Shown piece by piece: positions 33,617 to 34,335 of a DNA stretch of 64,000 nt. The stretch lies in contig CAWACB010000005.1 of the NCBI GenBank assembly GCA_963780475.1, positions 96,122-160,121 of the forward strand, read 5' to 3'. Source of the DNA: an uncultured Solirubrobacterales bacterium. Its GTDB lineage: Bacteria > Actinomycetota > Thermoleophilia > Solirubrobacterales > JBBDJG01. The notes below the pieces were generated by a model that saw nothing but the letters and a program-made list of their open reading frames with translations, had not been told where the DNA came from and did not search any database. Each line of letters begins with the position of its first letter. The first letter of the stretch is position 1. The position numbers and the translations under genes were made by a program.

Positions 33617-34335
33617 TCAGGCCAGCGCGGAGCGTGCGGGGTCGTAGCCCTCGCGCAGGTCTTCGCCGAACATCGGGATCTGATCCGTCATCTCGGTCAT
33701 GCGCGACACCGTGCGCTTGCCGACCTGTTCCTCGAGCTGCTCCCAGGTGAGGTTGGTCGTGACCAGCACGGAGCGCTCGGCCTCGTAGCGCTCGTTGACG
33801 AGGCAGTAGAGCTGCTCCAGCACCCAGGGGGTCTGGCGCTCTGCGCCGAGGTCGTCGAGGTGCAGCAGGTCCACTCCCACGAGCGCCCGGAACAGGTCGT
33901 CGTAGCTCCGCCCGCCGTCGGCGTCGTAGGTATTGCGGATCTCGGCCAGCAGGCGAGGCACCGAGTAGATCGCGACCGAGTGCCCGGCCTTCAGCGCGAG
34001 CTTCGACACCAGCATCGCCAGCGAGGTCTTGCCTGTTCCGACATCGCCCATCAGCCACAGGCCGCGGCCCGCGGAGACGTTGCGCTCCAGGTTCTCGGTG
34101 AACCGGCGCACGGGGCGCACGGCGTTGGAGGGCAGATCCGAGATCGGCGCGCGGTCGAACGACACCCCGCGGTAGCGCCGCGGGATCACCGACGAGACGC
34201 CGACCGAGCGCGACCGGCGGACCATCACCGGCCGGCACTCGCAGGGATCGCGTCGCCCGAGTCGTCGAGGACGAAGCCGTCGCCGCCGCAGCGGGAGCAG
34301 GCGGCAGGCTCGCGGCTCTCGAACCGGCGGCTCAC
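33617..34335 (-). CDS. DnaC/DnaI/IstB-like AAA+ ATPase (helicase-loader candidate); frame broken near 34240-34255
   Basis: The AAA+ body is the C-terminal part of track ORF 33617..34657(-): Walker [10 protein letters not shown], Walker [15 protein letters not shown]. An intact ORF exists from ATG 34225. A Cys-rich N-terminus [29 protein letters not shown] lies in another frame (track ORF 34225..34542). It starts at GTG 34335, which overlaps the reconstructed dnaB TGA, and joins ..PCECRPV. Confidence 0.7.

Follow-up and report, generated by a model that had tools for sequence, protein, structure and literature searches.

Does a DnaC-like AAA+ gene lying directly behind dnaB in an uncultured Solirubrobacterales bacterium belong to the replication machinery of its host, or is it a mobile gene caught in passing? 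In the current picture (Brezellec 2016, Mann 2017, Marsin 2021, Blaine 2022), Actinobacteria use DciA, and AAA+ helicase loaders are acquired from phages, each at the expense of dciA. The gene in question, called the loader below, occupies positions 33617 to 34335 of a 64,000-nucleotide stretch (contig CAWACB010000005.1 of assembly GCA_963780475.1, positions 96,122 to 160,121 of the forward strand) that we refer to as the window. Judged by homology and gene order, it is a conserved chromosomal DnaC-like gene of the soil actinobacterial order Solirubrobacterales. It quite probably acts in Solirubrobacterales and Thermoleophilia as a resident AAA+ loader or co-loader of DnaB, translationally coupled to dnaB.

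The gene is read on the minus strand, with a GTG start at 34335-34333 and a TGA stop at 33617-33619, and the window holds a single copy of it. Translation of the first 31 codons from the GTG at 34335 proceeds in a frame that differs from that of the 3′ part encoding the AAA+ domain. Alignment to an intact metagenomic contig that is 90% identical to the window (L095, the reference for all indel calls) places one missing C near 34246. Restoring this base yields ...GDAIPCECRPV..., i.e., a CxxC-x15-CxC N-terminus of the kind that an earlier note on this DNA had obtained by frame repair. The repaired product is 94% identical over its full length to an intact metagenomic protein of 239 amino acids (P0001, E = 1e-143). 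The Walker A motif, the Walker B motif LLHLDDLG and the VLVTTN strand that had been read in the 3′ frame are translated there as claimed. The features of the gene are as follows:

33617..34335, minus strand: loader gene, DnaC-like AAA+, 239 codons after repair of one frameshift, GTG start and TGA stop
34244..34248, minus strand: frameshift site, one C missing in 'atcc(c)ctgc' (near 34246, Ile30-Pro31), from the alignment to intact L095
34235..34299, minus strand: putative N-terminal zinc-ribbon motif of four cysteines, CSRC-x15-CEC (C13, C16, C32, C34)
34022..34048, minus strand: Walker A GDVGTGKTS (K103, T104), from translation
33845..33868, minus strand: Walker B LLHLDDLG (D161, D162), from translation
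33752..33769, minus strand: sensor I strand VLVTTN (N195), from translation
33701..33706, minus strand: box VII Ser-Arg (S211-R212), putative arginine finger by homology
33653..33655, minus strand: R228 of a G-x-D-x-R motif, putative sensor II arginine by homology

In E. coli DnaC, the counterpart of R212 lies in the 'vmdRm' segment, and the four-cysteine motif suggests that the N-terminus binds zinc. In 69 homologues with 51-93% identity to the loader, C13, C16, C32, C34, G97, G100, T101, G102, K103 and T104 are invariant, as are D162, N195, S211, R212, G224, D226 and R228. Extending the comparison to 45 relatives, down to 32% identity, leaves C32, K103 and R212 without variation, and conservation of each remaining cysteine is 90% or higher. 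Among 1.84 billion representative proteins searched, 143 clusters match at E ≤ 1e-30, a number that grows to 7,878 when the threshold is relaxed to E ≤ 1e-10; by this measure, the loader family is a distinct and sizeable subfamily within a very large superfamily. Some representatives (P0125 with 827 amino acids, P0165 with 792, and about 25 proteins of 400-480) contain either two to four loader-like stretches or a loader domain with 200-300 further residues fused to it, and may be tandem duplications or fusions within the family.

The only Pfam family that the loader matches above cutoff is PF01695 (IstB_IS21; 50.4 bits, cutoff 24.1), which is present in all of the at least 120 loader homologues. 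The highest score of all profiles belongs to phrog_50, 'DnaC-like helicase loader' (173.9 bits), whose match spans residues 10-234 and thus includes the cysteine motif. Among proteins of solved structure, sequence scores were 51.7 bits for Aquifex DnaC, 49.7 for E. coli DnaC, 42-47 for DnaI and 23.5 for IstB, so that the helicase loaders reach roughly double the IstB score. An AlphaFold2 (AF2) model built with 69 homologues has a mean predicted local distance difference test (pLDDT) value of 85.7. It shows an N-terminal beta-hairpin (residues 21-31, pLDDT about 80-85) and a helix, followed by a canonical AAA+ core. Foldseek searches of the PDB with this model returned Aquifex DnaC (3ECC/3EC2) and the E. 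coli DnaBC complex (6QEM) at the top, followed by IstB (8Q3W, 5BQ5), DnaI (2W58) and DnaA, with 5HE8 also among the top matches; the top viral matches were phage DnaC-like proteins. The PF01695 match, the complete set of AAA+ motifs and the AF2 fold bear out the DnaC/DnaI-superfamily identity first assigned to the gene. By these profile and model comparisons, the loader is an AAA+ protein of the DnaC/DnaI/IstB superfamily with a predicted initiator-clade fold, closest to PRK08116 and phage DnaC-like loaders, and it is not a curated DnaC, DnaI or IstB equivalog.

The link to dnaB can be seen at the junction of the two genes:

34332..34335, minus strand: GTGA start/stop overlap, the loader GTG lying over the dnaB TGA (34334-34332)
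34332..35745, minus strand: dnaB, replicative helicase, TTG start, 10 single-base insertions, found by tblastn in three frames

Compared to L095, the insertions in dnaB lie at approximately 35496, 35458, 35448, 35414, 35322, 35272, 35125, 34703, 34609 and 34366. Removal of the last of them (about 34366) restores the DnaB C-terminus, whose TGA then overlaps the loader GTG. A GGAG sequence is located 8 nt upstream of the GTG, within dnaB. An intact DnaB orthologue scores 398 bits against solved DnaB structures. The start/stop coupling proposed in the earlier note is therefore obtained in the window after repair of dnaB, and the same 4-nt overlap is seen directly in intact relatives: in the P0001 contig dnaB occupies 8601-10004 and the loader 10001-10720, in L095 the two genes occupy 2552-3952 and 3949-4668, and a 4-nt overlap is likewise present in L082, L083, L096 and L097. 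At the other end of dnaB, a further 4-nt overlap (35742-35745) joins its TTG start to the rplI stop, and L095 has this overlap as well, at 2552-2555. Each of the genes rplI, dnaB and loader thus runs into the next, an arrangement suggestive of translational coupling that passes in series from a ribosomal-protein gene to the replication genes.

A single scan of species-representative genomes yielded 80 loci, at which neighbours were mapped by tblastn. By record title, these come from Solirubrobacterales, Solirubrobacteraceae, Thermoleophilaceae or Thermoleophilia metagenome-assembled genomes, some are labelled 'Actinomycetes' or 'Actinomycetota', and one is labelled Syntrophothermus. The carriers of the dnaB-linked gene include the closed metagenome-assembled chromosomes OY969702.1, OY969915.1, OY970384.1, OY970304.1, OY970293.1 and OY969700.1. 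A same-strand dnaB lies upstream of the loader in 79 of the 80 species genomes (the 80th contig begins inside the loader) and directly upstream in 76/80, and purA lies downstream in nearly all of the 80 loci. Among the 79 dnaB-loader junctions, there are 14 overlaps of 4 nt, 38 of 1 nt and 3 of other lengths (55/79 in total), 15 gaps of 0-20 nt and 3 of 21-200 nt. Genes are inserted between dnaB and the loader at 3 loci, and the script left the junction type unresolved at another 3. With overlaps or gaps of at most 20 nt in 70 cases, the pairing with dnaB is conserved among relatives, as the earlier note had supposed.

The conserved unit is the dnaB-loader pair and not the ribosomal cluster, since at 12 loci (L018, L019, L021, L022, L028, L033, L034, L037, L038, L040, L046 and L071) the rpsF-ssb-rpsR-rplI block is found on the other strand, some 6-9 kb downstream, with dnaB-loader-purA in its usual order. 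The pattern points to an inversion or translocation by which dnaB lost contact with the ribosomal cluster and kept the loader beside it. The dnaB-loader-purA order is also kept around P0126, P0133 and P0287, which are 47-55% identical to the loader. At 34-38% identity, the P0265 and P0231 genes follow a small winged helix-turn-helix (wHTH)/replisome-organiser-like gene, an order also known from the replication modules of phages and Firmicutes. Divergence of the loader from its L001 counterpart (64% identity) falls within the range of core genes, for which the values are 62% (rpsF), 77% (rplI) and 77% (purA). Taken together, the sequence comparisons present the loader as a long-standing resident chromosomal gene.

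Several peculiarities of individual loci were observed in the course of this comparison. The only clear breaks in coupling are found in L020 (8250-9944), L024 (6182-9944) and L030 (9306-9944), where 0.6-3.8 kb of extra DNA with long open reading frames (ORFs) on either strand separates dnaB from the loader. In L095, the closest relative at the DNA level, a 342-amino-acid gene with faint Tricorn/PD40 matches (4715-5743) separates the loader from purA; neither the window nor the P0001 contig has this gene. The dnaB gene is 2.6-3.9 kb long in many relatives (L001/L003, 2567-5254; L015, L017, L024, L027, L028, L030, L035, L040, L045, L054, L060, L065 and L071), and the 895-amino-acid product of L001 contains Intein_splicing and LAGLIDADG domains. 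The window dnaB is without an intein, and intein presence varies among species of the same order. The locus deposited as 'Syntrophothermus sp.' (Firmicutes; L075, JBLNAC010000080.1) has the full rpsF...dnaB-loader-purA arrangement with a loader that is 57% identical, and it is probably a mis-binned Thermoleophilia contig.

A resident loader of this kind could be imagined to work as follows. Co-transcription of dnaB and the loader, and translational coupling through the stop/start overlap, would supply the two proteins in matched amounts. The zinc ribbon and the basic helix that follows it (residues about 11-45) may bind the DnaB hexamer at its C-terminal tier, and ATP-bound AAA+ domains would form a spiral via the arginine finger R212. 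At the origin or a restart site, such a spiral could open the DnaB ring, or assemble it, on single-stranded DNA, and ATP hydrolysis would then release the loader and activate DnaB.

How unexpected would such a gene be? Brezellec et al. 2016 (PMC5109545) surveyed 1,426 genomes and found domesticated dnaC/dnaI in five phyla, resulting from at least seven events. In that survey, dciA was systematically lost on each acquisition and no genome had both. Actinobacteria are not among the listed domestications, and the earlier note was right to place the phylum outside them. A full-text search found no paper discussing an AAA+ loader in Solirubrobacterales/Thermoleophilia lineages. Judged in the manner of Brezellec et al., the loader is resident: its context is non-mobile, it is present in 79/79 species with upstream sequence, and it is kept at 50-94% identity. 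This residency and the clade-wide presence argue for a domestication that is not listed among the seven published ones.

Several points weigh against the reading of the protein as a DnaB loader. That it binds and loads DnaB is inferred from its homology and fold, from the conserved motifs, and from synteny and coupling with dnaB. The loader reads as frameshifted in the window, and so do dnaB and ssb. The best NCBIfam match, PRK08116 (NF005992), reaches 146.4 bits and stays below its cutoff of 189; scores for DnaC (NF005931; 63.5 bits, cutoff 357) and DnaI (NF006505; 63.2 bits, cutoff 228) do not reach theirs either. No Pfam model, DnaI_N included, matches the N-terminal 79 residues at E up to 1, and the likeness to the DnaI N-terminus is therefore one of analogy and not of homology. 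In this respect, the reading of the N-terminus as a zinc ribbon 'as in DnaI' holds in part: the four-cysteine motif exists and is conserved, yet its likeness is to the N-terminal parts of phage DnaC-like loaders. Finally, Supplementary Data 1 of Brezellec et al. (PMC5109545) lists for Conexibacter woesei, a member of Solirubrobacterales, both a PF01695 protein (D3FDX3) and a DciA (D3EYQ7), and Blaine et al. 2022 report DciA proteins in Thermoleophilia. On these reports, DciA could be the origin loader and the AAA+ protein an accessory.

This last consideration defines the rival that survives best, in which the protein is an accessory or specialised partner of DnaB beside DciA. DciA would load DnaB at oriC, and the AAA+ protein would serve in replication restart, hold DnaB inactive or chaperone hexamer assembly. 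The C. woesei and Thermoleophilia entries speak for it, and tight linkage to dnaB fits any function directed at DnaB. On the other hand, the published surveys contain no genome with both DciA and a domesticated DnaC/I, and every ATPase motif of bona fide loaders is conserved in the present protein. We consider such a role unlikely.

The same supplementary table gives one PF01695 protein (Q1B006) and no DciA for Rubrobacter xylanophilus; this row carries extra organism-feature columns, also seen for another species without DciA, which we take to mark a 'neither' class. D3FDX3 and Q1B006 are likely dnaB-linked orthologues of the loader. The supplements of Blaine et al. 2022 hold no Thermoleophilia entries as text. 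A phmmer search with DciA-like seeds, which is a weak test, returned nothing below E = 0.2 in 13,716 ORFs. Motif scans for an origin region (GyrB, DnaA, RecF, GyrA) found none in the window or in 81 loci. The 'gyrB' of L086, considered as a route to recF-dciA-gyrB, was rejected on finding that it is actually ParE, 100% identical to that of Micromonospora aurantiaca. The ParE/ParC genes at L086 1-4740 (GCA_023404805.1, JAEYAL010000166.1) are both identical to those of this species, the genuine Micromonospora locus continues otherwise, and the corresponding place in L085 (ENA version, right-hand region) is occupied by ribosomal genes; the L086 contig is probably chimeric.

The determinant residue of DnaB was dropped as a test of loader type. 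According to Marsin et al. 2021, this position (Vc S296, Ec G299) holds Ser in species with DciA and Gly in those with DnaC. It is Lys in the window DnaB and Asp in the DnaB of Thermus, whose phylum is listed with dciA, so the rule is not transferable outside Gammaproteobacteria. A neighbour-joining tree of the AAA+ core (136 columns, 36 sequences, among them E. coli DnaC, Aquifex DnaC, two DnaI, Streptomyces IstB and three phage loaders) supports shallow clades. The split of the loader clade from DnaC, DnaI and phage loaders appears in 38/300 bootstraps, and the tree is therefore uninformative on an origin independent of clostridial/Chloroflexi acquisitions.

Given the C. woesei table entries and the Thermoleophilia DciA proteins, coexistence of DciA and the loader is at least as likely as replacement. 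A possibility that we take seriously without favouring it is that Thermoleophilia keep the ancestral DciA together with the dnaB-coupled loader. They would then be a stable exception to mutual exclusion and an eighth domestication, actinobacterial, from a zinc-ribbon phage loader. The earlier interpretation of the locus is largely right, with the DnaI likeness and the replacement of DciA overstated.

The frameshifts raise a further alternative, namely that the loader, dnaB and ssb are a decaying pseudogene copy in this genome and not a sequencing artefact. The neighbouring genes to which it refers are the following, and tblastn confirmed the order rpsF-ssb-rpsR-rplI-dnaB-loader that had been proposed for the cluster, with purA next in line:

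about 37190-37761 (ends approximate), minus strand: rpsF, found by tblastn
36536-37007, minus strand: ssb, one frameshift near 36727 (1-nt insertion)
36199-36471, minus strand: rpsR, intact
35742-36194, minus strand: rplI, intact
32244..33584, minus strand: purA (adenylosuccinate synthetase), intact, 32 nt downstream of the loader stop

A stretch of about 2.5 kb (34246-36727) holds twelve 1-nt indels: 10 insertions in dnaB, 1 insertion in ssb and 1 deletion in the loader. This concentration, and the intactness of long genes nearby (purA and the gene for a 1051-amino-acid MMPL protein, and also an 837-amino-acid acylase-like ORF), is what decay would have in its favour. However, the genes affected are essential and present in single copy; ssb and dnaB have only 1-nt insertions, eleven in total, and neither in-frame stops nor large deletions; in tblastn searches, the encoded segments are about 85% identical to orthologues in each frame; and the intervening rpsR and rplI genes are intact, a pattern typical of an uncorrected long-read consensus. 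Since every indel is of 1 nt, essential genes are hit and the amino-acid sequence is kept in every frame segment, the indels are best read as assembly errors and not as decay, and we regard a pseudogene copy as very improbable. The clustering at 34246-36727 resembles a locally low-quality consensus. Elsewhere in the window, next to the MMPL transporter gene, a 344-codon ORF on the plus strand (23078-24109) has a very high GC content at third codon positions (GC3 0.92) and a low one at first positions (GC1); it encodes a lysine-rich protein (...KKKVTCVKKSGGKCKKRKVKKTRTF...) whose composition is unusual for the genome.

We give hardly any weight to the view that the loader is a remnant of a prophage or plasmid replication module standing outside host replication. 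It could appeal to the phage family phrog_50 as the best profile match and to the relatives at 34-38% identity that follow replisome-organiser/wHTH-like genes and not dnaB. Against it are the lack of phage genes nearby, vertical conservation across the order with housekeeping flanks, purifying selection on the catalytic residues, and the distance of the nearest phage and viral-contig relatives, which are at most 40% identical. The last alternative, an IS21 IstB gene inserted by chance behind dnaB, would explain why the sole Pfam family above cutoff is named IstB_IS21 and why Streptomyces IstB proteins align at 31% identity, but it is for practical purposes already refuted: no IstA gene lies beside the loader, which is flanked by dnaB and purA, while a genuine Streptomyces IS21 shows an istA-istB overlap; the inverted repeats around it are GC-rich ones at chance level; the gene is single-copy in the window and holds the identical position in 79 species, dnaB being the upstream gene in 79/79; and the IstB scores are low in NCBIfam (NF038214; 64.3 bits, cutoff of 200 not reached) and in the PDB (23.5 bits against about 50 for loaders). 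The exclusion of an IS21 element in the earlier note is thereby upheld.

An order-wide, dnaB-coupled loader in Solirubrobacterales adds an actinobacterial case that went unremarked in the Brezellec supplementary table. A phage-type DnaC-like loader is a known kind of system, met here in a phylum where it was unexpected; its novelty is limited by the familiarity of the protein type, which the Joint Genome Institute (JGI) already auto-annotates as 'DnaC'. If DciA is retained too, Conexibacter woesei becomes a cultivable organism in which to test the 'incompatibility' hypothesis directly, and a lineage keeping both loaders would, if this is true, be a natural system for studying how they share or divide DnaB. 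The stop-start fusion of helicase and loader genes, combined with a minimal four-cysteine N-terminus common with actinophage loaders, may offer a compact model for the incorporation of a phage loader into an operon of its host.

Among named systems, DciA (PF05258) has the same presumed target, DnaB, but is a KH-like protein that is unrelated to the AAA+ loader and not an ATPase; its gene lies between recF and gyrB. IS21 IstB (PDB 5BQ5, 8Q3W) has its Pfam family and fold in common with the loader and differs in that the latter is without IstA or inverted repeats, sits at a fixed chromosomal position and scores lower with IstB models. E. coli DnaC (PDB 6QEL/6QEM), which acts on DnaB, has the same initiator-clade AAA+ fold (Foldseek E = 1.5e-9), Walker A and B motifs, sensor I and box VII arginine, and likewise a small N-terminal element ahead of the ATPase. 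Its core, however, is only about 26% identical to that of the loader, its N-terminus is helical and without cysteines where the loader has four, and its gene lies in a dnaT-dnaC operon apart from dnaB, whereas the loader overlaps the dnaB stop.

DnaI of Bacillus and Streptococcus (PDB 4M4W, 2QGZ, 2W58) is an AAA+ loader of the same superfamily. It requires the co-loaders DnaB(Bsu) and DnaD, none of which is seen at the present locus. The N-terminal helicase-interaction domain of DnaI reportedly binds zinc. This domain comprises about 100 residues, while the ribbon of the present loader comprises about 22 residues with four cysteines.

PRK08116 (NF005992, 'hypothetical protein') is the best curated match for the loader and all relatives tested (146, 141, 146, 117 and 170 bits), and all of these scores, those of P0126 and P0133 included, are under the 189-bit cutoff. 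The PRK08116 subfamily is mainly clostridial. The nearest-scoring relative tested, P0265, also has a CxxC...CxC N-terminus but pairs with a wHTH/replisome-organiser-like gene. An arrangement like the present one in both respects is that of gp200 of mycobacteriophage MoMoMixon (Bxz1-type), annotated as a DnaC-like loader: like the Solirubrobacterales protein, it has the cysteine motif (WCPTCNGRG...ACDC) ahead of its AAA+ domain, and its gene overlaps that of the phage's DnaB-like helicase (gp201). The two proteins are only 26% identical, the phage pair is not chromosomal, and the gene order is loader to helicase in MoMoMixon but helicase to loader in Solirubrobacterales.

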